64,000 nucleotides of DNA from an uncultured Gemmatimonadales bacterium (GCA_947259585.1 CAMYMV010000001.1:20135-84134), one strand, 5' to 3'; positions 2,650 through 26,432 are shown, numbered from the stretch's first letter. The notes: generated from the letters alone by a model not told the origin. Translations and numbers: made by a program.

Positions 2650-2820
2650 TCAGACGAACCAGGCGTCCGCTTCGGTCTCTACCGCCATCTGAGCAGACTG
2701 AGTGCCCTGCATCGGCTCGTTGTCGTCGACCGGCTCTTCGGTCGCCCGCCGGCCGGCCAGAACCGCGGCCGCGACGCCGGCCACGAGCGTTACGATCGCA
2801 AGGCGAATCTCTAAGCGCAT
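2650..2820 (-). CDS. possible small membrane-anchored protein (56 aa), hypothetical
   Basis: ORF below the 60-aa track cut-off. It reads MRLEIRLAIVTLVAGVAAAVLAGRRATEEPVDDNEPMQGTQSAQMAVETEADAWFV, with a hydrophobic N-terminus and GC-rich third codon positions. It sits in the gap between the M20 peptidase and the transporter. Confidence 0.25.
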   Translation of the reverse strand: MRLEIRLAIVTLVAGVAAAVLAGRRATEEPVDDNEPMQGTQSAQMAVETEADAWFV

Positions 2821-3110
2821 GAACCCATCCTCCAGCAGCTTCTATACAGCTTGAAGCCCCCCTGTAACCACCAACTCCCTGCCTACGACTGTCGCACGAT
2901 CCGTGCTCGCGGCGAGCTCAGGGTAATGTGTTTGAAAATCAACGATTTACGGCAGGCGCTCCAACGCGTTGCCATCGTGTGTTTCCAGAGCGCAACGCAC
3001 TATGCAGGCCTTGACGCCGCAGCGCCAGGCCCCGTACGTCTCGGGCACGTCACAATCGTGCTGGAGCGCTGTGTCTCCATGTTTCACACCCAGATCTGGA
3101 GAGTCGAGAG

Positions 3111-4445
3111 ATGAACGAGGCGCCTCGAGAGCAGTGGGGCAGCCGTTTCGGCTTCGTGCTCGCCGCCGTCGGATCGGCGGTCGGCCTGGGCAACATGTGG
3201 CGCTTTCCGTACTTCGCCGCCGAGAACGGTGGGGCGGCCTTCGTATTCCTCTACATCATCATGGTGGCGCTGATCGGCCTGCCGATCATGCTGGCGGAGT
3301 TCGCTATCGGGCGGGGCTCGAAGAAGAGCCCGATCCTGGCGCTCGCCCACTTCGGCGGCAACGCCTGGAAGCCGCTTGGCGTCCTCTTCGTGCTCGGCGG
3401 CTTTCTCATCCTGTCGTACTACGCCGTGATCGCGGGCTGGACCCTCCGCTACGCGTGGAACGCGCTGTCCGTGGGCTTCGGCAGCGACCCGGCCGGCTTC
3501 TTTGGCGAGGTCTCGACCGGCGGAGATGCCGCACTCTGGCACCTGCTGTTCATGGCGGTCACGGTCCTCATCGTCGCCGGCGGGATTCGGGCGGGCATCG
3601 AGCGCAGCGCCATCATCCTGATGCCGCTCCTGGCCCTGATCGTCGTGGGCCTGGCCATCTTCGCCTCGACGCTGCCCGGGGCCGGAGCGGGCTACGCGTT
3701 CTATCTCAAGGCGGACTTCAGCGAACTCCTCTCGCTGAGCGTACTCACCGAGGCGACGAGCCAGGCTTTCTTCAGCCTGAGCCTGGGGATGGGCGCGATG
3801 CTCACCTACTCGAGTTACCTCTCGCGAGACGACAACATGCCCCGTGAAGCGGTGATCATCGCGGGATCCGACTTCATGATCGCCTTCCTCGCGGGCCTGA
3901 TGGTCTTTCCGCTCATCTTCGCCCTCGGCTTGTCGGACGAGCTGAGCGACAGCACGATCGGTGCATTGTTCATCAGCCTTCCGAACGCTTTCGGCGAGAT
4001 GGGCGCGGTCGGCAGGCCGGTGGGGATCCTCTTCTTCGTGGCGCTTCTGGTCGGCGCTCTCACGTCGGCCATCTCGCTGCTCGAGGTCGTCGTCTCCGCG
4101 ATCATCGACACCTGGAAGTGGCCTCGGAGGAAAGCGGCGCTGATCATGGGGGCCCTCATCACGATGGTCGGGATCCCATCGGCCCTCAGCATAGACTTCC
4201 TGGGTCTGGTGGATCAGCTGGCCGCCAACCTCTTCCTGGTCGTCGGCGCGTTCTCGCTCTCGATCTTCGTCGGGTGGGTGATGCCGGATCCGATCGGGGA
4301 GGTCAGCAAGGGGGCGGAGAACATACGCTGGCTGCCCTTGTGGTACGCGTTCATCCGCTACGTCGTGCCGCCTTTGCTCCTGTTCGTTCTCTACTTCACG
4401 GTGATCAACACCTGGAACATGGTCACGGGTCTGATCGGCGGCTGA
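3111..4445 (+). CDS. sodium-dependent transporter, neurotransmitter:sodium symporter (NSS/SNF) family
   Basis: GLGNMWRFPY hallmark near the N-terminus and multiple hydrophobic TM segments. There is a GGAGAG RBS before the ATG, and an approximately 280-bp lower-GC leader upstream. Confidence 0.9.
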   Translation: MNEAPREQWGSRFGFVLAAVGSAVGLGNMWRFPYFAAENGGAAFVFLYIIMVALIGLPIMLAEFAIGRGSKKSPILALAHFGGNAWKPLGVLFVLGGFLILSYYAVIAGWTLRYAWNALSVGFGSDPAGFFGEVSTGGDAALWHLLFMAVTVLIVAGGIRAGIERSAIILMPLLALIVVGLAIFASTLPGAGAGYAFYLKADFSELLSLSVLTEATSQAFFSLSLGMGAMLTYSSYLSRDDNMPREAVIIAGSDFMIAFLAGLMVFPLIFALGLSDELSDSTIGALFISLPNAFGEMGAVGRPVGILFFVALLVGALTSAISLLEVVVSAIIDTWKWPRRKAALIMGALITMVGIPSALSIDFLGLVDQLAANLFLVVGAFSLSIFVGWVMPDPIGEVSKGAENIRWLPLWYAFIRYVVPPLLLFVLYFTVINTWNMVTGLIGG

Positions 4446-17314: not shown

Positions 17315-18658
17315 TCAGCAAGAGGATAGAAGCGTCGCCTCGCACGCCGCCAGAACCTCGTCCACGCCTTCCACCGCCAGGTCCAGGAGGTCACGCCCGA
17401 TCGCCAGAGGAGGGGACAGCGAGAGGACATCGCCCTCCACTCCCGAGCCGAGGAGAATCCAGCCCCGCTTCAGGCCTTCCACGAGCGCCTTCGCGGTGAT
17501 CCGGTGGCTCGGCACCCTGCCGGCCGGGTCTTCCAGCTGGATGCCTATCATCATGCCTCGCCCACGCACCTCGCGGACCACCGAACGGCCGCTCGCCATC
17601 TCTCGCAGCTCATCGAGCCAGCGCGCACCTTCCTCGCGAGCCCGCTCCGCCAGGCGGAGCTCCTCGATCAAGCCGATCGAAGCGAGGGCGGCGGCGCAGG
17701 AGATCGGGTGGCCCATGAAGGTCGAGGTGTGCATCGCCTCTCCGGCCGACTCGGGCCAGGCGGACATGGCCTCCGCCGACCCGATACAGGCGGATATCGG
17801 CATCCCCCCGGACATGGCTTTGCCGACGCACAACAGGTCGGGAACGACCCCTTCGGCGTCACACGCGAGCCGCGAGCCGGTGCGGCCGAAGCCGGTGAAG
17901 ATCTCGTCCGCGATCAGCAACGCCCCGTGCGCCCGGCAGAGCCGCGCCAGACCGGGAAGGAATCCCGCCGCGGGAAAGATATCCCCCCCGCGGCCGAGCG
18001 CCGGCTCGACGATCACGGCTCCGATCCCGCCTTCGGGCGCCGAGAGAAGCCTCTCCACCTGGTGGAGAGCCGCCGAGGCATCGCCGGCGCCTTCGGCGGG
18101 ATAGGGTGCACGAACGACATTGGGGTTGAGCTGCGCGCGGAACGGCTGGCGAAACAGCGAGCGGTCGGTGACCGAGAGGGCCCCGTACGTGACGCCGTGG
18201 TACGCCCCCGAGAAAGTCAGCCAGCCGGGCCGGCCGGTGTAGAGGGTCGCCGTCTTGAGGGCTATCTCCACGGCTTCGGAGCCCGAGGTACCGAGAACGA
18301 CTCTCGATCCGGGCGGCCCCAGCGCGGCGAGACGCTCGAGCAGCTCTACCCGCGCCTCGGACGGATGCACATCTCCCATCGTGTGCAGCAGCTCCTGGGA
18401 CTGTGACCGGATCGCCTCCTGTATCACCGGATGCCGGTGTCCAGCCGCCGCCACGCCGAACGCCGCCGTCAGGTCCACGTAGCGGTTGCCGTCCGCATCC
18501 CACACGTTGCTTCCCAACGCGGTTCGCCAGAAGACGGGGAAGTCGCGGGAGATGAAGGTGACGTTCCGGGACTCGACGCCCGCCAGTCGGGCAGCGAGCG
18601 CGGCCGATCGGGGTCCGGGAGCGGGACCTGTCAGAAGCGGTGGCTGAGAATTCAGCAT
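17315..18658 (-). CDS. class III (acetylornithine/GABA-type) aminotransferase
   Basis: DEIFTGFGRTGSRLACD...GKAMSGGMPI are class III PLP motifs. The start is taken at the internal ATG (MLNSQPPLL) at 18658; the 150-codon upstream extension in the track ORF is unlikely to be real. Confidence 0.85.
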   Translation of the reverse strand: MLNSQPPLLTGPAPGPRSAALAARLAGVESRNVTFISRDFPVFWRTALGSNVWDADGNRYVDLTAAFGVAAAGHRHPVIQEAIRSQSQELLHTMGDVHPSEARVELLERLAALGPPGSRVVLGTSGSEAVEIALKTATLYTGRPGWLTFSGAYHGVTYGALSVTDRSLFRQPFRAQLNPNVVRAPYPAEGAGDASAALHQVERLLSAPEGGIGAVIVEPALGRGGDIFPAAGFLPGLARLCRAHGALLIADEIFTGFGRTGSRLACDAEGVVPDLLCVGKAMSGGMPISACIGSAEAMSAWPESAGEAMHTSTFMGHPISCAAALASIGLIEELRLAERAREEGARWLDELREMASGRSVVREVRGRGMMIGIQLEDPAGRVPSHRITAKALVEGLKRGWILLGSGVEGDVLSLSPPLAIGRDLLDLAVEGVDEVLAACEATLLSSC

Positions 18659-18710
18659 CGGTCGAGCGGCATCCGGCAGCGACGGAACATGCGCGTTCGA
18701 GTTCCGTTGC

Positions 18711-18920
18711 CTACCAGTTGTAGACGGTCCAGCATGCGCATTCGGGCGACGGGCAGATGAGGCGGACGCGGAACGGGCTCCCATCCGACCGGGGAGCCGG
18801 GTGCTCTTCCACGTGGCGCGCCATGCGCGTGGAGCAAGCGGGACACTCGGGCTCGCCGCCCGCCGTCGGGTGCTCGCGATCCAGCCGCTCGAGCTCGGTG
18901 GCTTGCTCATGCTCGAGCAT
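18711..18920 (-). CDS. small zinc-ribbon protein, hypothetical (about 69 aa)
   Basis: MLEHEQATELERLDREHPTAGGEPECPACSTRMARHVEE...ICPSPECACWTVYNW contains two CxxC pairs. It is the first gene upstream of the aminotransferase on the minus strand. Confidence 0.35.
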   Translation of the reverse strand: MLEHEQATELERLDREHPTAGGEPECPACSTRMARHVEEHPAPRSDGSPFRVRLICPSPECACWTVYNW

Positions 18921-19057
18921 GCGTCCGAGATTGTCGTCCTGTTCCACGCCCTTGTTCCCGCCGATCGGTTGATCTGTCGAGAGGATCGCCCGACGAAGCC
19001 GGCCGATCGCACCCACGGAGAGGATAGGATGCCGACCGCGGGCACCATCACGCCAGC

Positions 19058-20221
19058 ATGAGCGAGCGCGGCGAGCCTTCCGGGCGCGGCGGAGACCCTC
19101 TCGGGCACTACCGGCAGGAGTTCCCGATCCTCGAGCGGAAGGTCTATCTGAACTCCAACTCTCTCGGTGCCCTCTCACGCCGGTCGATCTCGCACCGGCG
19201 TGAGTTCGAGCGCGACTGGAACGAGCTGGGTGCCAGCGCGTGGTACGATCGCTGGCTCGGCAAGCTCGAGCGCGTGCGGGCAGCCTTCGGGCGCACCGTG
19301 GGAGCGGGACCCGCCACGATCGCCCTCCTGCCCAGCATCTCCGCCGGACTGGCGGCCGTCGCGGGATCCGTGGACTTTCGCCGCCGCAACCGGGTGGTGG
19401 TTACGGAGCTCGACTTCCCGACGCTCTGTTACCAGTTCCTCTCGCGGGAGCCGACGGGCCTGGAGGTCGTGATGGTCGAGAGCCCCGACGGCATCGAAGT
19501 GCCGCTGGACCGGATCGAGGCCGCCGTGGATGACCGGACCGCGATCCTCGCGACGTCGCACGTCTTCTTCTCCTCCGGCGCCATCCAGGAGGTGGAGGAG
19601 CTGGCGAGCATAGCCCATCGGCACGGCGCTCTCCTGCTTCTTGATGCGTATCAATCGACCGGCCAGATCGCGGTGGACGTTGGAGCGTGGGGGGTGGATA
19701 TCCTCCTGTCGGGAGCCCTCAAGTGGCTGTGCGGCGGCCCCGGCCTCGCCTTCCTCTACGTGACGCCCGACCTCGACCTGCAGCCCACGACGCTCAGCTG
19801 GTTCGGCGTGGAGAACCAGTTCTCCTTCGACCCCAGGGCCGCCCGGCCGCACGCCGACGCACGCCGCTTCGAGCTCGGCACCCCGGCCGTGAGCGCCGCC
19901 TTTACGGCCGCCGGCGGCCTCGAGATCATCGAAGAAGTCGGAATCGACCGGATTCGAGATCGAAACCGGATGCTGGCCGCCGACCTGATCGACCGTCTCT
20001 CGGATGCCGGCTTCCGGCCCCACGTAGCGCGGGATCCGGCTTGCCGTTCAGCGGTCGTCCTCGCGGACCACCCCGATGCCGCCTCCGCCGTCGGAAGCCT
20101 GGCCGAGAGCGGGATCATCATCGACTACAGGAAGGACCGGGTACGGCTCTCCCCGCATTTCTACAACACGGTCGAGGAGAACCGGCTCGCCGTGGAAGCT
20201 CTGGCGGCGTGCCGGCCGTGA
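19058..20221 (+). CDS. kynureninase-like class V PLP-dependent enzyme
   Basis: YLNSNSLGAL near the N-terminus and the LSGALKWLCGGPGLAFLYV motif resemble kynureninase signatures. Confidence 0.7.
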   Translation: MSERGEPSGRGGDPLGHYRQEFPILERKVYLNSNSLGALSRRSISHRREFERDWNELGASAWYDRWLGKLERVRAAFGRTVGAGPATIALLPSISAGLAAVAGSVDFRRRNRVVVTELDFPTLCYQFLSREPTGLEVVMVESPDGIEVPLDRIEAAVDDRTAILATSHVFFSSGAIQEVEELASIAHRHGALLLLDAYQSTGQIAVDVGAWGVDILLSGALKWLCGGPGLAFLYVTPDLDLQPTTLSWFGVENQFSFDPRAARPHADARRFELGTPAVSAAFTAAGGLEIIEEVGIDRIRDRNRMLAADLIDRLSDAGFRPHVARDPACRSAVVLADHPDAASAVGSLAESGIIIDYRKDRVRLSPHFYNTVEENRLAVEALAACRP

Positions 20222-20246: not shown

Positions 20247-22043
20247 TCAGTGCTCCAAACCTATGACGGCGTAGCCCTTCTCGTCACTGATCCATGCCAG
20301 GTAGACGTTGGCGGGTCGCGGCCGCGGTGTCGCCGTCGGCCCCAACCTCTCGGCCCGGACGCGTAGCACGGCGAGCCGTTCGGCCGACACGTCCGTGTAT
20401 CCGGCAGATGGTGCTTCCACGGCGGAAGCGGGCCGGCACGCGTCGATCGCATCCGGCGGCGCTACGTGGAGCTTCGACGGGCCTGCGCCTGGCGGGACGC
20501 TCGATCCCTTCCAGTGGCGCCCGCGACCCTCGTCCCGCAGCTCCCACTCGTAGCGCGTATCGGAACGGTATCGCGCCCCGACGGCGATGCCGAGATCCTC
20601 GAAGCTCACACCGAAGCCGGGGCCCGAGGCATCCGTGCACTCGACCAGGACGCCCTCGATCGGCGACACGCGACCGAACCAGTAGTCCACCGTCTTGTCC
20701 CGGCGAGCGATGAGGATCGCCGCGAGCGTGTCGGCGGCGCGCCGATCGGGAAGCTCGCCGGCCTCGACCGCGGCTCGAATCAGCCCGTCGCTGAACCGGG
20801 CGACGATCTTCGCCGCCCAATACCCATCGGCGGCCGTGGCCGATCGGAACGCGGCGTTCGGCCAGTTCGGCTTCCACGCGCCGGGCCGGTAGCTGTCGAC
20901 GGGGATCCAGCCGATCGACGGGTCGATGACCTCGAACTCCTTTTCCTCCCAACCCACCTGGTAGAAACCGAAGGTTGGCAGGCGGGCGAGGAAGGCCCAG
21001 ACGTCGAAGTTGTACTCCATGCCCTCTCTGGGATTGTGGGGGCGAATCGTGCCGCTTCCGAGCGTGGCCCCGAAGTCCTGCAGGTAGTGCCGCAGATAAC
21101 CCGGAGGGTCGATCCAGACATCCATGGTGTTGGCGAAGCGCATGTCTACGTGATTGGTCCAGGCGGAGATCACATAGAGTCCTCTCAGCTCGCGTCTGTT
21201 CTGGTGCAGGTAATAGTCGTTCGGGTCGTCCTTGCGGGTCCCTCGGAAACGGAAGGGACCCTTGGGCGGCCCAGGCAGCAGCTTGCTGGCGATCGCCCGG
21301 TATCGGCCGTCGGCCAGCGGGGAGGTCTGCTCGAGGACCTCCTGCACCTCTTCCTCCGTGGGAGACTCCTGCTCCTCCGCGGGCGTCTCATCGTCCCCCG
21401 TGGGCGTCTCCCCTTCCCCCGCGGGCGCCTCCTCGTCCCCCGAGATTACGAGGAACGTCGGGTCGAAGGTCACCAGGTAGTCCTCGGGCGCGTGGAAGCC
21501 CGCCGCCCAGAAGAGTCGGTTGGAGATCGTGTTCGCGGCGCTCGCCAGATAGAGGTTCTCGGGCGGATCGAACTTGAACAGGTAGACGTCGCCCTTGCCG
21601 TCCTCGACCCAGAAGCCGGGCGAGATCCCCGCCCCCTTCAGCCGAGTGACGGTGAAGGGGGGACGGGGCCGGCCTTCGAGAGAGGTGGGTCCAAGCCTCA
21701 TCTCCTCCTCCGAGAGATCGCGCCGCGTGATCCGATGCTCGAACCACGCCGAGCTCACGACCTCGTCGAAGTGTGTGACGTTCAACGCCTCGTTCCGGTA
21801 GATCCAGTCGTCCGGATCGAAGGGCTGCCCCAACTCTCCAACCGTCGACTCCCGGATGAGGGGCCAGATCTCCGCCGGCTCCCTCTCCTCGGGCTCGTGG
21901 ATCGGGAGCGTATCCGCGAAGGGGATCGGCTGCGGGCGAAGCGCGAGCGGCGGAAGACTGCCTCCTCGCGAGCATCCGGAGAGCGCAACCGCCCCCAGGG
22001 CCAGGGCCAGCGCCGCCGCCAGCGGCCGATCCCTGCCGAGCAT
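20247..22043 (-). CDS. large hypothetical lipoprotein with acidic Glu/Pro/Thr repeat region
   Basis: The internal start MLGRDRPLAAALALALGAVALSGC has lipobox LSGC. The ATG overlaps the stop of the upstream Omp85-like gene (ATGA). It contains an EEAPAGEGETPTGDDETPAEEQESPTEEE low-complexity block. Confidence 0.65.
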   Translation of the reverse strand: MLGRDRPLAAALALALGAVALSGCSRGGSLPPLALRPQPIPFADTLPIHEPEEREPAEIWPLIRESTVGELGQPFDPDDWIYRNEALNVTHFDEVVSSAWFEHRITRRDLSEEEMRLGPTSLEGRPRPPFTVTRLKGAGISPGFWVEDGKGDVYLFKFDPPENLYLASAANTISNRLFWAAGFHAPEDYLVTFDPTFLVISGDEEAPAGEGETPTGDDETPAEEQESPTEEEVQEVLEQTSPLADGRYRAIASKLLPGPPKGPFRFRGTRKDDPNDYYLHQNRRELRGLYVISAWTNHVDMRFANTMDVWIDPPGYLRHYLQDFGATLGSGTIRPHNPREGMEYNFDVWAFLARLPTFGFYQVGWEEKEFEVIDPSIGWIPVDSYRPGAWKPNWPNAAFRSATAADGYWAAKIVARFSDGLIRAAVEAGELPDRRAADTLAAILIARRDKTVDYWFGRVSPIEGVLVECTDASGPGFGVSFEDLGIAVGARYRSDTRYEWELRDEGRGRHWKGSSVPPGAGPSKLHVAPPDAIDACRPASAVEAPSAGYTDVSAERLAVLRVRAERLGPTATPRPRPANVYLAWISDEKGYAVIGLEH

Positions 22044-23455
22044 CAGAAGTCCGAGATGAGGCGGAAGCCGAACCGGAAACCCTCGTCGCCCCAGGCGAAG
22101 AAGAAGTGGGCGCCGGGACCGGTCTGGGTGGCGAAGCGGAGCCCGAAGCCCCAGTCGTTCCTGAGGGAGGTGATCTCGCTGATGCTGGGCATCACCGTAC
22201 CGGAGTCCCAAAACACGAACCACTCCGCCCGCGACCGGTCCTGCAGCTCGCGCCATGCCTCGTAACGCCACTCCACCGTCCAGGTGAGCCTGTCCCTGTC
22301 GCGGAAGCGGGCGGTCGTGAAGCCGCGCAGATTCTGATCGCCCCCCAGCTCCGCAAGGTAGTAGAAGGGCACGCCCTGTCCCCAACCGGGGTTGCTCTCG
22401 ACGAGGGCGCGGAGAGCGAACGATTGCCGCTGGTTGAAGGGGATGTAGCCCTGGACCTCGCCCTGCAGGCGTAGAAAGTCGGAGTCCGTGGACCCGGTGC
22501 CGCCGTAGTAGAAGGCCTCGCCGATGAATCGCACGCCTCGTGGCTGCAGGATGTCGATGTGCGAGAAGTCGACGGTCGCTTTCGTCCCGGCGACGACGTA
22601 GTTGACGACGTCGAGCGATCCGTACAGGGAGTCGGGATCGAAGGTCTCACGTATGTCGGGCAGATCGTCGTTCTGCCCGGCGCCCGTACGGTTCGTCTCC
22701 CATCCCGCGACGCTGTTGAAGGTCAAGTGATCGGAGACCTCCGCCTTCCATAGTCCCCCCAGCTGAATCTGCTCCCACTCGTAGTTGGATTTGTCGTCCT
22801 CCCTCGAGTCGATACCAACGCCCCAGAACTGGGCTTCGGTGAGCCTCCGGAACTTGGCGCCGGCATCGGTCAGCCTGTCCTCCGTCGTCACTCCGAAGGC
22901 AACGTACGCAGCACCGGGAGACTGGATCAGCGAGACGGCCCCTTCGATGAAAGCCGGGGCGAAACGGGTAAGGCGAAGCTGTATGCCGTCGCCCGCGTTG
23001 TATCCCAGCGACTCGACGGAGGGCTCCAGCCCCCACTCGACCATCCTGTCGTAAATGTTCGGTCCTTTGCCCTCGGGCAGCAGCTGGCTGATGCCTGCCG
23101 CCGCGACGCCGACCCCGGCAGCCAGCAGACGGAGCGGCAGCATCGCGAGCGCGAGGGGCAGTCCGACGTAGTCGCGAGCATCCGGCGGATGGCGGGCGGG
23201 AGGCCGCTGGAGGAGGGCCCGGATCTTGTCGGCGCTGTCGGGGGAAACCGGGCCACCCCGCTCCTGCGCCATGGTAGCCCGGATCGGCGCTTCGGCGGCG
23301 TAACGTGCGGGGATGGAGTCGCCGGCCTGCGCCTGGAGCGCCTCCGGACGAGCCATCAGAGGAGCGAAGATGAGAAGCCACAGCCCCACGGCTACCCGAG
23401 AGGGGTATGCAACCGTGTGACGAGAGTGGGATTTGGAGCTAAAGTACCCAAACAT
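22043..23455 (-). CDS. Omp85/BamA-superfamily outer-membrane beta-barrel protein (about 470 aa)
   Basis: C-terminal aromatic-rich alternating strands ending FRLISDF (terminal Phe). GGDQNLRGF matches the Omp85 loop-6 VRGF/Y motif. The N-terminal signal-like segment is VAVGLWLLIFAPLMA. The start is chosen at the MFGYF ATG and is uncertain. Confidence 0.65.
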   Translation of the reverse strand: MFGYFSSKSHSRHTVAYPSRVAVGLWLLIFAPLMARPEALQAQAGDSIPARYAAEAPIRATMAQERGGPVSPDSADKIRALLQRPPARHPPDARDYVGLPLALAMLPLRLLAAGVGVAAAGISQLLPEGKGPNIYDRMVEWGLEPSVESLGYNAGDGIQLRLTRFAPAFIEGAVSLIQSPGAAYVAFGVTTEDRLTDAGAKFRRLTEAQFWGVGIDSREDDKSNYEWEQIQLGGLWKAEVSDHLTFNSVAGWETNRTGAGQNDDLPDIRETFDPDSLYGSLDVVNYVVAGTKATVDFSHIDILQPRGVRFIGEAFYYGGTGSTDSDFLRLQGEVQGYIPFNQRQSFALRALVESNPGWGQGVPFYYLAELGGDQNLRGFTTARFRDRDRLTWTVEWRYEAWRELQDRSRAEWFVFWDSGTVMPSISEITSLRNDWGFGLRFATQTGPGAHFFFAWGDEGFRFGFRLISDF

Positions 23456-23786
23456 TGGCGCCGTTTCGTGTGAGCTTCGGACCGTTGCGTCCTCCAGCCC
23501 GTTCCCGGCGGCTCGAAGGGCGTCCATTCTGTCACTACCTGAACGTCAGGACCAGTCGTGGCGGTTTCATGCCGCGTTGGCCGACGGCGCCGACAGGACC
23601 GCACACATCGGGTGCCATATAGGCGGACAGCGCCTCATCGGGCACCCGCGAGTGGGCCCGGATCGTGCACTGGATCTCGCCCAGGCGCCCCCGGGTCCGA
23701 GCTGATGGAGTCGACCGTGGGCACACGACGAATGCACGAGAGGTGAGCTGAAATCGGTGCTCGCACCGCATAAATCGGGAGCTGGA

Positions 23787-26432
23787 ATGAGCGAAGAGGA
23801 CAGGACTCTCAACGACCGACTGGACGACGGTAACGAGTCGGATGGCGACGTGGTGGAGACCGGCGCGGACGACGACCGGCCCGAACGCACCCGCCTTCCG
23901 GTGGTCCCGCTTCGGGGCACCGTCACCTTCCCCGCGGTGGCGGCGCCGATCGCCGCCGGCCGGGAGATGACGCTCAAGGCGATCGAAGCCGCGGTCGCCG
24001 GCGACAAGCGCATCTTCGCCGTCGCTCAGAAAGACGCCGAGGTCGAAGAGCCCGATGCCGATGATCTGTATCGGGTCGGAACCGTCGCCCGGATCGCGCA
24101 GATGCAGAGAGTGCCCGGTGGGGTGCAGATGGTCATCCAGGGCGAAGAGCGCGGGGCCGCGCTCGAGTACTCCGTCCGGGATGGCTTCGTGGAGGTCGTC
24201 AGCAGGCGCATGGAGGACATGCCGCCGCTGGACCCAGAGGAATCGGCTTTCGCTGCCCTCTACAAAGAGGTACGCGAGCGAGCGGCCGAGCTGAGTCGGC
24301 TCCGCGGCGTCCCGAAGGAGATCGTCGATCATCTGCTGGGCGGAATCTCCACGCCCGGCGAGCTGGCCGATCTCGTCGCCTTCTACACCGAGCTCGATAC
24401 CGATGAGAAGCAGGAGCTTCTGGAGACCCTGTCCGTCGAGGACCGCCTGCGGAAGCTGCTTATCCACCTGCAACGGCAGATCGGCGTCTTGGAGGCGCAG
24501 GAACAGATCCGATCGAAGGTCCAGGAGGAGCTCGGCGAGCGGCAACGCGAGATCTTCCTGCGCGAGCAGCTGAAGGCGATCCACAAAGAGCTGGGGGAGG
24601 ACGTCGACAGCCAGGAAGCCGAGGAGCTCCGTGAGCGCCTCGAAGCGCTTCACATTCCGGAGGAGGCTCGCAAGGAGGTCGACCGCGAGCTGCGCAGGCT
24701 GGAGCGAATCCCCCGAGAGACCGCAGAGGCACAGGTGATTCGCACCTACCTGGAGATCGTGGCGGACCTGCCCTGGTCGAAGAAGACGGAGAGCCGGCTG
24801 GACTTGAAGGCGGCGGAAGTGATCCTCGAGCGGGACCACTACGGACTTCAGGACGTCAAGGACCGTGTGCTGGACTTCCTCGCGGTGCGGAAGCTCCACG
24901 AGGAGAAGAACGGGGTGGCCGAAGCCGAGCCGCCGACCGATGGCCCCGTTGTGACCGAAGGTAAGGGCGGGAACGGCCTCGCCGACGAGCCAAAAGCGGC
25001 GGAGGTCGAAGATGCCGGCGAGAACGACGAGCCGGACGCGCCGCTAGCGGAGCACATCGGGCACACGGATGACCGAACGGGCTCCACGCTCCTGTTCGTG
25101 GGACCACCGGGCGTCGGCAAGACATCGATCGCCAAGTCCATCGCGGAGGCGATGGGCCGCAAGTACGTGCGCGTTTCACTCGGCGGTGCCAGGGACGAGG
25201 CGGATATCAGGGGTCACCGGCGGACCTACGTCGGCGCGCTTCCAGGCCGCATCGTCGAAGGCCTCAAGCGAGCCGGAACCCGGAATCCGGTCTTCCTCCT
25301 CGACGAGGTCGACAAGCTGGGCGTCTCTTTTCAGGGTGATCCGTCGGCCGCCCTCATGGAGGTGTTGGATCCGGCGCAGAACAACGCCTTCGTGGATCAC
25401 TACCTCGGCGTGCCGTTCGATCTCTCGGACGTCTTCTTCATCGCCACGGCCAACTTCTGGGACCAGATTCCCGGACCCCTGCGCGACCGAATGGAAGCGA
25501 TCGAGTTCCTGGGCTATACGGAGGGCGAGAAGCTGGAGATCGCCAAGCGCTTTCTGCTGCCGCGCCAGGTCGAGGAGAGCGGCCTCGAGAGAGACCAGAT
25601 CGACGTCGCGGACGAGGCCATTCGAGACGTGATTGCCAGCTATACCCGGGAGGCGGGCGTCCGCAACCTCGAGCGCGAGCTCGGAGCGATCGCGCGAAAG
25701 TCAGCGCGAAAGGTCGCGTCCGGAGACGCGGAGAGCGTGACCGTCGGGGCCGATGACCTGCGCGACCTCCTCGGTCAGCCCAAGGTCCACCCGGAGCGGA
25801 TGCTCGAGAAGGACAGGATCGGCATAGCGACCGGCATGTCGTATACCCCGGCTGGGGGCGACATCATGGTCGTCGAGACCTTTGTGCGCGCCGGCAAGGA
25901 GGAGCTCCAACTGACGGGCCACCTCGGCGATGTCATGAAGGAGAGCGCCCAGGCCGCATTGACATACGCTCTCGGCCACGCCGACGAGCTTGACATCCCG
26001 GACAACGAGATGCGTTCGATTCACGTGCATGTGCCCGCGGGCGCCGTGCCCAAGGAGGGGCCGTCGGCCGGTATCGCCATGGCGGCCTCGCTGGTGAGCG
26101 CGCTCAGCGGCCGGCCGGTTCGACACGACGTGGCGATGACCGGAGAGATCACGCTCACCGGCCGGGTCCGTGCGATCGGGGGTGTGAAGGAGAAGGTGCT
26201 CGGTGCGTACCGGGCCGGCATTCGCGAGATCATCCTTCCGCGGGACAACGAGGGAGACCTTGAGGAGCTGCCCGACCGCGTCAGGGAGCAGACGACCTTC
26301 CACCTGGTCGACAGGCTCGGGGAGGCGATGGCGGTGGCGATTCCGAGCGGAGCTTCGGCGGCATCGACCGATGCGGGAGACGGGAAGCCGTCCGCGAAGC
26401 CGAAACCGAAAAAGAAGGCCGTCGCGACCTAG
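23787..26432 (+). CDS. lon: ATP-dependent Lon protease
   Basis: Lon N-domain, Walker A GPPGVGKTS, and protease domain with PKEGPSAGIAM (catalytic Ser). GGGAG RBS before the ATG at 23787. An acidic insertion of about 50 aa precedes the Walker A. Confidence 0.95.
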   Translation: MSEEDRTLNDRLDDGNESDGDVVETGADDDRPERTRLPVVPLRGTVTFPAVAAPIAAGREMTLKAIEAAVAGDKRIFAVAQKDAEVEEPDADDLYRVGTVARIAQMQRVPGGVQMVIQGEERGAALEYSVRDGFVEVVSRRMEDMPPLDPEESAFAALYKEVRERAAELSRLRGVPKEIVDHLLGGISTPGELADLVAFYTELDTDEKQELLETLSVEDRLRKLLIHLQRQIGVLEAQEQIRSKVQEELGERQREIFLREQLKAIHKELGEDVDSQEAEELRERLEALHIPEEARKEVDRELRRLERIPRETAEAQVIRTYLEIVADLPWSKKTESRLDLKAAEVILERDHYGLQDVKDRVLDFLAVRKLHEEKNGVAEAEPPTDGPVVTEGKGGNGLADEPKAAEVEDAGENDEPDAPLAEHIGHTDDRTGSTLLFVGPPGVGKTSIAKSIAEAMGRKYVRVSLGGARDEADIRGHRRTYVGALPGRIVEGLKRAGTRNPVFLLDEVDKLGVSFQGDPSAALMEVLDPAQNNAFVDHYLGVPFDLSDVFFIATANFWDQIPGPLRDRMEAIEFLGYTEGEKLEIAKRFLLPRQVEESGLERDQIDVADEAIRDVIASYTREAGVRNLERELGAIARKSARKVASGDAESVTVGADDLRDLLGQPKVHPERMLEKDRIGIATGMSYTPAGGDIMVVETFVRAGKEELQLTGHLGDVMKESAQAALTYALGHADELDIPDNEMRSIHVHVPAGAVPKEGPSAGIAMAASLVSALSGRPVRHDVAMTGEITLTGRVRAIGGVKEKVLGAYRAGIREIILPRDNEGDLEELPDRVREQTTFHLVDRLGEAMAVAIPSGASAASTDAGDGKPSAKPKPKKKAVAT

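Follow-up and report, generated by a model that had tools for sequence, protein, structure and literature searches.

Two overlapping genes in a Gemmatimonadales genome encode an outer-membrane barrel of the Omp85 superfamily and a lipoprotein with a predicted protein-kinase-like domain. The pair is conserved across many soil bacteria, which points to an undescribed enzyme complex that may carry out phosphorylation outside the cytoplasm. The barrel homolog is adjacent to the lipoprotein gene in 73 of 73 loci that could be scored in Gemmatimonadota, KSB1 and Acidobacteriota (Bryobacterales included), far beyond chance expectation, and in 22 of 23 loci of a second subfamily in which the gene order is reversed. 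The lipoprotein has no match in Pfam or NCBIfam at their thresholds. Its predicted fold and invariant residues (Lys157, Asp300-x4-Asn305, Asp323-Phe-Gly) indicate a new protein-kinase-like family on the HipA/CtkA/PI4K branch, followed by an Ig-like domain.

Organisation of the gene pair

The window analysed is a stretch of 64,000 nucleotides from an uncultured Gemmatimonadales bacterium (GCA_947259585.1 CAMYMV010000001.1:20135-84134). Both open reading frames lie on the minus strand, and the pair comprises the following features.

23456-23756, strand not assigned: 301-nt divergent spacer between the barrel gene and Lon, the presumed promoter region
22043-23455, minus strand: gene for a POTRA-less ('noNterm') Omp85-superfamily outer-membrane barrel, 470 aa plus stop
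23324-23455, minus strand: predicted Sec signal peptide of the barrel (aa 1-44, ending LQAQA)
23036-23323, minus strand: N-terminal periplasmic region of the barrel (aa 45-140), with the conserved motif GPVSPDSADxIRAxLxRPPAxxPxDAxDxV and a hydrophobic helix, without a POTRA fold
22046-23035, minus strand: 16-stranded beta-barrel (aa 141-470) ending in a C-terminal Phe
22319-22345, minus strand: loop-6 motif GGDQNLRGF (aa 371-379); its lid-lock partner FWDSG (FxDxG, aa 415-419) lies at 22199-22213
22041-22045, minus strand: gene junction TGATG
20247-22043, minus strand: gene for a 598-aa lipoprotein with a predicted kinase-like core
21972-22043, minus strand: lipoprotein signal peptide with lipobox LSG|C (aa 1-24)
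21747-21971, minus strand: tether (aa 25-99) containing invariant P39, D44-T-L-P47 and P51, a candidate docking motif
20676-21746, minus strand: predicted protein-kinase-like domain (aa ~100-456), with a GISPG loop (aa 139-143), Lys157 in FKFDP (21564-21578), DDPND (21216-21230), RRELRG, the putative catalytic loop HVDMRFAN (21129-21152) and DFG (21069-21077)
21347-21442, minus strand: strain-specific acidic tandem repeat of 7-aa units (PAGEGET/PTGDDET/PAEEQES/PTEEEVQ), inserted in a variable loop of the kinase-like domain
20250-20666, minus strand: predicted C-terminal Ig/FN3-like beta-sandwich (aa 460-598) ending in the conserved VIGLEH

The barrel protein scores 38.6 bits (E 1.2e-9) against the Pfam Omp85 profile PF01103, above the cut-off of 24, and its closest homologs are also 470 aa long. 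The signal peptide was read from the sequence as a hydrophobic stretch followed by AQA, and its cleavage site is inferred. The AF2 model of the protein contains 16 main strands between aa 143 and 467, with pLDDT mostly 82–97. A Foldseek search matches this model to the TamA barrels 8us4 and 4n74 at TM 0.69, followed by BamA and Sam50, all at a probability of 1.00. The loop-6 motif includes LRGF at aa 376-379, and the lid-lock motif FxDxG belongs to beta-13. The loop-6 and lid-lock columns are conserved in three alignments (A2, A3 and A4), following the motif definitions of PMC11358297, and the protein ends in ISDF. The region N-terminal to the barrel yields no POTRA hit in Pfam and only low-confidence helices in the model, whereas its motif is conserved in alignments A2 and A3. 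The protein therefore fits the definition of the noNterm Omp85 subfamily, an Omp85 barrel with no recognisable N-terminal periplasmic domain (PMC4104836).

The stop codon of the barrel gene (22045-22043) overlaps the ATG of the lipoprotein gene (22043-22041) by one base, the junction reading TTC TGA TG. The spacer upstream of the barrel gene shows no sigma-70 consensus, which is uninformative for this phylum; in many relatives its position is occupied by a metallophosphoesterase or TLC-HEAT gene.

The lipoprotein has more than 390 full-length homologs, and its family comprises 3,187 cluster representatives (50% identity) at E<=1e-3. The lipobox LSGC, which fits the consensus [LVI][ASTVI][GAS]C, lies at aa 21-24; its Cys is conserved in at least 90% of the sequences in A1, an alignment of the lipoprotein, and a lipobox was found in most loci. 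Lipid anchoring is inferred from this motif. The tether is predicted with pLDDT below 50 at aa 24-43 and 87-96, and the docking role of its residues, invariant in A1, is likewise inferred. The C-terminal domain is modelled as strands from 462 to 597 and draws FN3 and cytokine-receptor Foldseek hits; G595, L596 and H598 are nearly invariant in A1.

The assignment of the central domain to a kinase-like fold rests on a predicted structure and on sequence motifs, not on the three-dimensional placement of the putative catalytic residues. The AF2 model (pTM 0.81) follows the order beta1-3(Lys), alphaC, alphaE, catalytic loop, DFG and flexible segment, which matches a kinase fold. Foldseek hits include CtkA 3akk (probability 1.0, TM 0.56), FAM20C and PI4KIIa. 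K157, D300, N305 and D323 are invariant in A1 and sit on the expected secondary-structure elements. K157, D300 and D323 are also conserved in at least 90% of A6, an alignment of 50 sequences down to 25% identity, and are retained in the second subfamily, although the His preceding the putative catalytic Asp is not conserved there. At the level of sequence, no homology to any kinase reaches significance. The window protein has no hit to a kinase-like family in Pfam or NCBIfam, profile searches of the PDB return only spurious armadillo hits, and hhalign against a Hanks-type kinase gives a probability of 0.04. The only recurrent Pfam hits among the 50 relatives are HipA_2 (7 of 50), HipA_C (5 of 50) and PI3_PI4_kinase (1); these hits, in 13 of 50 relatives, are co-linear with the N-lobe and catalytic loop but remain below threshold, with a best E of 0.021.

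The observation made in the first-pass annotation is confirmed by these results, with small corrections. The annotation placed the overlap in a four-base ATGA, whereas the junction is the one-base TGATG. It described an imperfectly repeated acidic block, which is real—at the DNA level it is an imperfect tandem repeat with a 21-nt period, 4.6 copies and 77% matches (TRF)—but is not a feature of the family. The block (aa 204-232) contains a 21-residue insertion absent from relatives that are 90–92% identical, and it is predicted to be disordered, with pLDDT below 50 at aa 207-224. The absence of a recognisable domain in the lipoprotein holds for Pfam and NCBIfam at their thresholds, but the predicted fold is kinase-like, and the protein is not a featureless acidic-repeat protein.

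Conservation of the pairing, fusions and recurrent partners

The coupling of the two genes extends well beyond the window. In 63 of 64 related loci a start codon lies within -13 to +14 nt of the barrel stop, and in 43 the two overlap. In the second subfamily the barrel gene is found downstream, in 22 of 23 loci, and among more distant loci a barrel lies upstream in 11 of 15. A barrel outside the Omp85 family by HMM, or a pairing not conserved in related genomes, had been set beforehand as refuting the annotation, and neither is the case.

Natural fusions join the kinase-like domain to several partners. A fusion with the Omp85 barrel occurs as an identical 1005-aa ORF on contigs from two samples, with the kinase-like domain placed N-terminal to the barrel, where POTRA domains sit in other Omp85 proteins. 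A fusion with an inner-membrane PAP2 phosphatase is accompanied by a barrel gene overlapping its start by 4 nt. A fusion with a TLC/NTT-type putative nucleotide transporter was found as a TLC plus kinase-like ORF in three assemblies.

Two partners, this transporter and a phosphoesterase lipoprotein, recur in relatives but are absent from this window, which contains only the core pair. The TLC-type transporter is adjacent in 14 of 55 Gemmatimonadota loci and in 16–17 of 28 loci of the second subfamily. The transporters of the two clades are homologous to each other and are distant relatives of NTT proteins: they match Pfam TLC above its threshold, but score far below the NTT family cut-off. A lipoprotein resembling purple acid phosphatases, a metallophosphoesterase (PF00149), is adjacent in 25 plus 19 loci.

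Proposed periplasmic enzyme complex and alternative readings

The explanation we favour, and consider somewhat more likely than not, is a translationally coupled operon encoding an outer-membrane complex. In this view, the barrel is inserted into the outer membrane after Sec export, and the partner, lipid-anchored through the lipobox Cys, hangs in the periplasm on a tether of ~75 residues carrying the invariant DTLP motif. The barrel would act as the docking or assembly scaffold for the kinase-like enzyme and, in many relatives, also for the purple-acid-phosphatase-like lipoprotein. The enzyme would transfer a phosphoryl (or a nucleotidyl) group to an unidentified envelope substrate, and in related lineages the co-encoded TLC/NTT-type inner-membrane transporter plausibly supplies the nucleotide. 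The analysis itself establishes both genes and their motifs, membership of the barrel in Omp85, the absence of POTRA, the conservation of adjacency and coupling, the fusions and the recurrent partners. The kinase-like fold, the physical complex, the periplasmic topology, catalysis and its substrate, nucleotide binding and use, and ATP supply are inferences from these data. The periplasm is not known to contain ATP, and the absence of both the transporter and the phosphoesterase from this window also weighs against the model, as do the lack of significant sequence homology to any kinase, the unconserved His in the second subfamily and the low scores of the TLC proteins against the NTT family.

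The interpretation offered in the first-pass annotation is only partly supported. Its proposals that the barrel belongs to Omp85, that it is short of POTRA domains, and that the coupled pair does not correspond to the standard Bam, Tam or TpsAB arrangements all hold. Its suggestion of a dedicated surface-lipoprotein export pair—in which the barrel would translocate or flip its partner to the cell surface, as Slam, TpsB or type Vd (PlpD) systems do, and the kinase-like domain would act outside the cell—is disfavoured and appears unlikely, a judgement resting on indirect evidence. The near-obligate adjacency and coupling are compatible with export, and the fusion with the domain N-terminal to the barrel resembles the passenger-then-barrel order of PlpD (PMC4104836). 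In Leptospira, noNterm Omp85 genes are followed by lipoprotein genes, the product of one of which is reported as surface-exposed, and a translocase role has been speculated (PMC11358297). However, the fusions to integral inner-membrane PAP2 or TLC modules, still coupled to a barrel, present a topology impossible for a surface-exposed domain, and only a periplasmic location fits all of the fusions. In addition, the barrel is TamA/BamA-like and retains the lid-lock motifs that close the barrel, no TpsB-type structure is found among its top 50 structural matches, it has no POTRA domain, TPS domain or DUF560, and an ATP-dependent enzyme would have no donor on the cell surface. An assembly or docking pair, the other possibility named in the annotation, remains a fair description.

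The recurrent partners also invite a reading of the locus as a module for scavenging nucleotides or organophosphates, which we regard as unlikely. Here the barrel would admit or tether external nucleotides or phosphoesters, the two lipoproteins would process them in the periplasm, and the transporter would import the nucleotide products, the canonical NTT direction. This is suggested by the recurrence of a phosphoesterase and an NTT-type transporter, by the origin of the contigs from soil and rhizosphere samples, environments in which phosphorus scavenging is common, and by the import of nucleotides by all characterised NTTs (PMC5381601). On the other hand, Omp85 barrels are not known to act as solute channels, and a kinase-like enzyme has no obvious role in scavenging without a phosphoryl donor. 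The invariant core of the module is the barrel with the kinase-like protein, while the phosphatase and the transporter are dispensable, as in this window.

Less likely still is a non-catalytic role for the lipoprotein as a structural or regulatory subunit, comparable to BamB-E, of a specialised Omp85 insertase assembling particular outer-membrane proteins, with the kinase-like fold serving only as a binding scaffold (a pseudokinase). BamA-type barrels work with lipoprotein partners (PMC3359395), the barrel retains insertase-like motifs, and both the lack of known ATP in the periplasm and the lack of a kinase match at the sequence level agree with this reading. Against it stand the conservation of Lys157, Asp300 and Asp323 in A6, the invariance of Asn305 in A1 and the invariance of the DDPND/H/RR signature in A6, which are atypical of pseudokinases. 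The association with a nucleotide-transporter family and a phosphoesterase across clades points to phosphate chemistry.

A more far-reaching possibility, not excluded by the data but tentative, is that the pair forms the core of a previously unrecognised envelope phosphorylation system, in which a TLC/NTT-type inner-membrane exchanger exports ATP to feed the docked enzyme and the purple-acid-phosphatase-like lipoprotein opposes it. This would amount to reversible, ATP-dependent phosphorylation of an outer-membrane or periplasmic substrate in free-living bacteria. It would also assign a function to noNterm Omp85 barrels and to the NTT proteins of free-living bacteria, both currently unexplained. 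The periplasm is generally regarded as lacking ATP, and our literature searches returned no periplasmic or outer-membrane protein-kinase-like enzyme system. The large and completely unannotated family described here, extracytoplasmic by its signal peptide and lipobox, with a predicted kinase fold, an Omp85 barrel coupled to it at nearly all scored loci, and frequent links to an ATP/ADP-carrier-like transporter and a phosphoesterase, thus provides a testable hypothesis on the roles of these barrels, on those of NTT and NTT-HEAT transporters, and on whether bacteria carry out nucleotide-dependent chemistry beyond the inner membrane. Even on the conservative reading, the pair defines a new domain family and a new class of Omp85 partner, abundant in Gemmatimonadota and Acidobacteriota from soil.

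Comparison with known systems

The noNterm Omp85 paralogs of Leptospira (LIC12252/12254/12258) likewise lack POTRA domains, retain the loop-6 and FxDxG lid-lock motifs and have a lipoprotein gene directly downstream (PMC11358297). Their partners, however, are DUF1566 or Big-domain adhesin-like lipoproteins rather than kinase-like ones, and no association with a transporter or phosphoesterase is reported there. The Leptospira subset carries DUF5982, a motif covering the first two strands, which is not detected in our barrel at E<=1.

TamA and BamA provide the best structural matches and share the 16 strands, the (L/V)RG(F/Y) loop-6 motif and a C-terminal aromatic residue. The barrel is nevertheless neither of the two: it lacks the five POTRA domains of BamA and the three of TamA, scores only 19.8 against the BamA equivalog model TIGR03303 (cut-off 297) and 10.3 against the TamA model NF047950 (cut-off 625), and has no TamB or BamB-E partner in the locus. 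Nor is it a TpsB protein, a barrel with two POTRA domains whose partner carries an N-terminal TPS domain, as neither member of the pair has ShlB, POTRA_2 or TPS hits in Pfam. It differs from Slam, a 14-stranded DUF560 barrel with N-terminal TPR repeats, in being a 16-stranded PF01103 barrel without DUF560 or TPR hits.

Omp85 barrels combined with N-terminal enzyme domains have precedents in PlpD (patatin, type Vd) and the Omp85-PF00149 'Metallo' subfamily (PMC4104836). The pair resembles them through the kinase-like-domain-plus-barrel fusion of its relatives and the recurrent PF00149 neighbour. In this window, however, the enzyme-like protein and the barrel are encoded by separate genes, unlike the single polypeptide of type Vd secretion, ordered passenger, POTRA, Omp85 barrel; there is no POTRA domain, whereas PlpD has one—the fused relatives P0270 and P0294 also show no POTRA hit—and the enzyme is kinase-like rather than a lipase or phosphoesterase. 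The fusions seen here argue for a periplasmic rather than a secreted location.

The NTT-HEAT and TLC nucleotide transporters of free-living bacteria (PMC5381601) compare with the transporter found next to the pair in relatives, which carries HEAT repeats in its Gemmatimonadota versions and whose only PDB relatives are ADP/ATP carriers. No such gene is present in this window, and a link of these transporters to a periplasmic kinase-like protein or an Omp85 barrel did not turn up in our literature searches. FAM20C and CotH, kinase-fold enzymes working outside the cytosol, offer a functional analogy only: FAM20C is among the fold hits, but there is no detectable homology, those enzymes act in compartments that contain ATP (the Golgi; the mother cell during sporulation), and they have no outer-membrane barrel partner.

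The closest kinase relatives by predicted fold are the HipA-like kinases, H. pylori CtkA and type II PI4-kinases (PKL superfamily), with which the lipoprotein shares a Lys in beta3, an Asp-x4-Asn motif in the putative catalytic loop and a DFG-like putative Mg-binding Asp; a two-lobed kinase-like fold is indicated by the predicted structure alone. Apart from matching these families only below every threshold, it differs in its signal peptide and lipobox, which make it extracytoplasmic, in the family-specific invariant DDPND and H-x2-RR-x2-R motifs, in its C-terminal Ig-like domain, and in its obligate Omp85 partner.

The barrel and its lipoprotein partner

Both open reading frames of the first-pass annotation are present on the minus strand as described, and its observation of a closely coupled Omp85-family barrel and lipoprotein pair holds, with corrections to the junction and to the acidic repeat. 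The features of the window referred to below are:

22043-23455, minus strand: gene for the Omp85 barrel, 470 aa
20247-22043, minus strand: gene for the lipoprotein, 598 aa
21347-21442: acidic tandem repeat within the lipoprotein gene
20250-20273: conserved C-terminal strand of the lipoprotein, aa 591-598
23456-23756: 301-nt spacer between the barrel gene and Lon
23757-26432, plus strand: Lon protease gene
23535-24899, minus strand: 454-aa shadow ORF antisense to Lon
23567-24025, minus strand: shadow ORF antisense to the 5' part of Lon
17315-19108, minus strand: class-III aminotransferase ORF, 597 aa

The closest homologs of the barrel protein are also 470 aa long. The protein starts with a signal-peptide-like N-terminus ending in AQA, contains GGDQNLRGF at residues 371-379 and ends in ISDF. 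The lipoprotein begins MLGRDRPLAAALALALGAVALSGC. The junction of the two genes reads TTC TGA TG, and the stop and start therefore overlap by one base (TGATG) rather than by the four-base ATGA given in the first-pass annotation. A scan for sigma-70 promoters and terminators was uninformative. The 454-aa ORF upstream of the barrel and the shorter ORF at 23567-24025 are shadow ORFs of a high-GC genome. The aminotransferase ORF is probably listed with a start too far upstream, since its Pfam domain begins only at residue 190 and the syntenic homolog in the related locus L003 is 413 aa long.

The barrel protein matches Pfam Omp85 (PF01103) above the threshold, at 38.6 bits against a cut-off of 24, with no POTRA hit, and its scores against the BamA and TamA equivalog models are negligible. 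A further homolog search with the barrel alignment, the third of its kind, returned no new proteins. The AlphaFold2 model, built from a 22-sequence alignment (mean pLDDT 72.7, with the barrel region mostly 82-97), displays 16 strands between residues 143 and 467, while the N-terminal ~130 residues form only low-confidence helices. The best structural matches are TamA barrels (8us4 and 4n74, TM 0.69), followed by BamA, Sam50 and Toc75, all at probability 1.00; no TpsB-type translocator appears among the top 50. Both halves of the Omp85 lid-lock are retained, LRGF in loop 6 and FWDSG (FxDxG) on beta-13, following the motif definitions of PMC11358297. The protein therefore fits the noNterm Omp85 class of Heinz and Lithgow (PMC4104836) but, unlike the Leptospira noNterm proteins, lacks DUF5982. 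Its N-terminal region carries a family-conserved motif, GPVSPDSADxIRAxLxRPPAxxPxDAxDxV, followed by a hydrophobic segment.

The lipoprotein has no match in Pfam or NCBIfam, but it is far from an orphan. More than 390 full-length homologs were found, all annotated as hypothetical and mostly from Gemmatimonadota; most of those listed share 47-50% identity with the window protein. A profile search of 1.84 billion cluster representatives found 3,187 relatives at E<=1e-3 and 1,004 at E<=1e-30. The acidic block reported in the first-pass annotation (aa 204-232) corresponds to an imperfect 21-nt tandem repeat of 4.6 copies and reads as the 7-residue units PAGEGET, PTGDDET, PAEEQES and PTEEEVQ. In relatives with 90-92% identity the unit (P-x-x-E/D-x-E-T/S) is present once, and the three extra copies form a 21-residue insertion unique to this window. 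This looks like a recent slippage-type tandem expansion inside a surface loop of the kinase-like domain. We rejected the idea that the repeat is functionally central, as it is strain-specific and predicted to be disordered.

The invariant columns of the lipoprotein alignment look like a protein-kinase active site: a GISPG loop, Lys157 in FKFDP, His298-x-Asp300-x4-Asn305 and Asp323-Phe-Gly/Ala. The AlphaFold2 model (pTM 0.81, core pLDDT 85-96) places these residues on the elements expected of a kinase, in the order of three N-lobe strands with the Lys on the third, a long helix, two more strands, a helix equivalent to alphaE, the catalytic loop, two short strands, DFG and a low-confidence activation-segment-like stretch, followed by a helical C-lobe and a C-terminal beta-sandwich. 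Foldseek against the PDB gives weak E-values, at or above 5e-3, although the only hits spanning the central domain are kinase folds: H. pylori CtkA (probability 1.00, TM 0.56 normalised to the target), FAM20C, PI4KIIalpha, IRE1 and a Rio-type chain. The C-terminus matches FN3 and cytokine-receptor sandwiches.

Sequence-profile methods failed to link the family to any kinase. PDB searches with a narrow and a diverse lipoprotein profile returned only designed-armadillo artefacts, which come from a 29-residue chance match summed over repeats, and hhalign of the narrow alignment against a Hanks-type kinase from the related locus L001 found nothing (probability 0.04). When 50 very diverse members were scanned individually at a permissive threshold, the only recurring Pfam families were HipA_2 (7 members), HipA_C (5) and PI3_PI4_kinase (1). 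These weak hits are co-linear with the model: HipA_2 profile positions 1-73 align to the N-lobe, and the PI3_PI4_kinase catalytic segment aligns to the region containing the Asp-x4-Asn loop and DFG. Across the same 50 sequences, which extend down to 25% identity, K157, D300 and D323 stay at or above 90% conservation, and a family-specific signature, DDPND...H-x2-RR-x2-R, is invariant. The extreme C-terminus is a conserved strand ending in (Y/F)xV(V/I)GLEH, or GLER in a second subfamily, which leads directly into the linker in the barrel fusion described below and may be a recognition or beta-augmentation element.

Conservation of the pair and fusions of the kinase-like domain

We examined 80 loci from one genome per species and three loci obtained through homolog look-ups. 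In every one of the 73 loci with upstream sequence, a barrel homolog (E<=1e-55) lies immediately upstream on the same strand; these include a KSB1 locus and a Bryobacterales locus, and the 10 loci without a barrel are all truncated at the contig end. Chance adjacency is excluded. In 63 of 64 scorable loci a plausible lipoprotein start lies within -13 to +14 nt of the barrel stop, and in 43 the two overlap, although this estimate takes the start codon nearest the stop and is biased toward small gaps. Two of the contigs, L037 (labelled as an Akkermansiaceae MAG) and L082 (labelled as an Alphaproteobacteria MAG), carry Gemmatimonadota-type copies of the locus with 48-56% identity, typical of the spread of that phylum, and are probably binning contaminants.

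A second subfamily, about 30% identical to the window protein, was sampled from soil and rhizosphere metagenomes. Here the barrel lies immediately downstream of the kinase-like gene in 22 of 23 scorable loci. The single exception, the soil-metagenome contig L085, has two tandem copies of the kinase-like gene (946-2568 and 2777-4402) followed by the contig end. More distant loci again have the barrel upstream, in 11 of 15. The flanking genes differ between clades, so the pair itself is the conserved unit. In L024 (5674-6540) and about 24 other Gemmatimonadota loci, an NlpC/P60 peptidoglycan hydrolase gene with SH3 domains lies immediately downstream of the lipoprotein gene on the opposite strand, which may reflect clade synteny or an envelope-related association. 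A Hanks-type Ser/Thr protein kinase gene lies a few kb upstream of the module in two unrelated clades (L001:690-2297 and L150:1614-2849), in L150 next to an FHA/sigma-54 activator gene; this may be coincidence or a regulatory link.

Several relatives carry the kinase-like domain fused to another module. The proteins P0270 and P0294 consist of a signal peptide, the kinase-like domain, the Ig-like domain, a linker and an Omp85 barrel ending in Phe, and an identical 1005-aa ORF occurs on contigs from two separate samples. In the protein P0260 the kinase-like domain is fused to a C-terminal PAP2 membrane phosphatase, and the gene overlapping its start by 4 nt is a barrel homolog (E 4e-30). P0289, P0297 and L109 are single ORFs, occurring in three assemblies, that join a 12-TM TLC-type transporter to the kinase-like domain. 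These ORFs retain a lipobox-like signal sequence internally and could be adjacent genes merged into one reading frame, in which case they still demonstrate adjacency. The domain is thus found tethered by an outer-membrane lipid anchor, by an outer-membrane barrel, by an inner-membrane PAP2 domain or by an inner-membrane transporter, and the only compartment compatible with all four is the periplasm. This is the main argument against the surface-export role proposed in the first-pass annotation, which we regard as unlikely. The earlier interpretation is supported in part: the Omp85 identity of the barrel and the conserved pairing are supported, whereas the proposed export function is disfavoured and an assembly or docking pair remains a fair description.

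Recurrent neighbours in relatives and the inferred mechanism

A TLC/NTT-type transporter lies directly upstream of the barrel on the same strand in 14 of 55 Gemmatimonadota loci, where it carries HEAT repeats, and upstream of the kinase-like gene in 16-17 of 28 loci of the second subfamily. The transporters of the two clades are homologous across the whole membrane domain (30% identity over 424 residues, E 2e-28). They pass the Pfam TLC threshold, while their best NCBIfam match, the NTP/NDP exchange transporter superfamily, falls far below its cut-off; their only PDB relatives are chloroplast and bacterial ADP/ATP carriers (9j3j, E 1e-6). NTT-HEAT proteins are widespread in free-living bacteria and have no known function (PMC5381601).

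The second recurrent neighbour is a purple-acid-phosphatase-like metallophosphoesterase (PF00149 plus Pur_ac_phosph_N) with its own lipobox. It lies immediately upstream of the barrel on the same strand in 25 Gemmatimonadota loci and borders the module in 19 loci of the second subfamily. Independent gene calls on a 247-kb contig show the compact arrangement of a TLC-kinase-like ORF, an Omp85 barrel 8 nt later and a convergent metallophosphoesterase. Heinz and Lithgow described an Omp85 subfamily fused to PF00149 whose barrels resemble noNterm barrels (PMC4104836), which fits the idea that this barrel type serves as a scaffold for periplasmic phospho-enzymes. An alternative role of the module in nucleotide or organophosphate scavenging appears improbable.

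Neither neighbour is present in this 64-kb window. A metallophosphoesterase profile hit on the ORF at 23567-24025 just upstream of the barrel looked like a gene remnant but was an artefact, matching only the part of the stop-to-stop ORFs of related loci that reads through into antisense-Lon sequence. In many Gemmatimonadota relatives a metallophosphoesterase lipoprotein gene or a TLC-HEAT transporter gene sits between Lon and the barrel, whereas here there is only the 301-nt spacer, so this clade seems to have lost, or never gained, the accessory genes at this site. Synteny suggests that the clade has only the core pair between Lon and an aminotransferase gene.

While the genes, their pairing, the fusions and the recurrent neighbours are observed directly, the kinase-like fold is predicted, and the mechanism, including export, periplasmic topology, complex formation, catalysis and nucleotide supply, is inferred. 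In this view, both proteins would be exported by the Sec system and the barrel inserted in the outer membrane. The lipoprotein has Ser at position +2 after the lipidated Cys and would probably be sorted to the outer membrane, although the sorting rules for this phylum are unknown. Translational coupling suggests 1:1 production and a stable complex, for which the candidate contact elements are the invariant DTLP motif in the otherwise disordered tether, the conserved C-terminal strand VIGLEH and the conserved N-terminal motif of the barrel. The kinase-like domain would then catalyse phosphoryl or nucleotidyl transfer on an envelope substrate; where present, the phosphoesterase lipoprotein would reverse or complement this reaction, and the TLC-type exchanger would supply the nucleotide. 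The PAP2 fusion, together with fatty-acid hydroxylase (PF04116) genes divergently adjacent to the kinase-like-barrel fusion gene on both of its contigs (L151:2185-3577 and L152:391-954), hints at a lipid or LPS substrate, but this hint is weak. That the lipoprotein is instead a non-catalytic accessory subunit of a specialised insertase is the most doubtful of the alternatives.

Comparison with described Omp85 systems

Literature searches for a link of Omp85 to kinases, or for periplasmic ATP supply, found no prior description, in a library that omits most subscription journals. A categorically new, ATP-fed periplasmic phosphorylation system is possible but less likely than not. The barrel is a new member of the known noNterm Omp85 class, and the arrangement of a noNterm Omp85 gene followed by a lipoprotein gene has a published precedent in Leptospira, where its function is unknown (PMC11358297). 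What appears to be new is the partner, a large, unannotated family with a predicted kinase fold, together with its obligate coupling across phyla and gene orders, the fusions that constrain its topology, and the recurrence of the module with an NTT-type transporter and a phosphoesterase lipoprotein.
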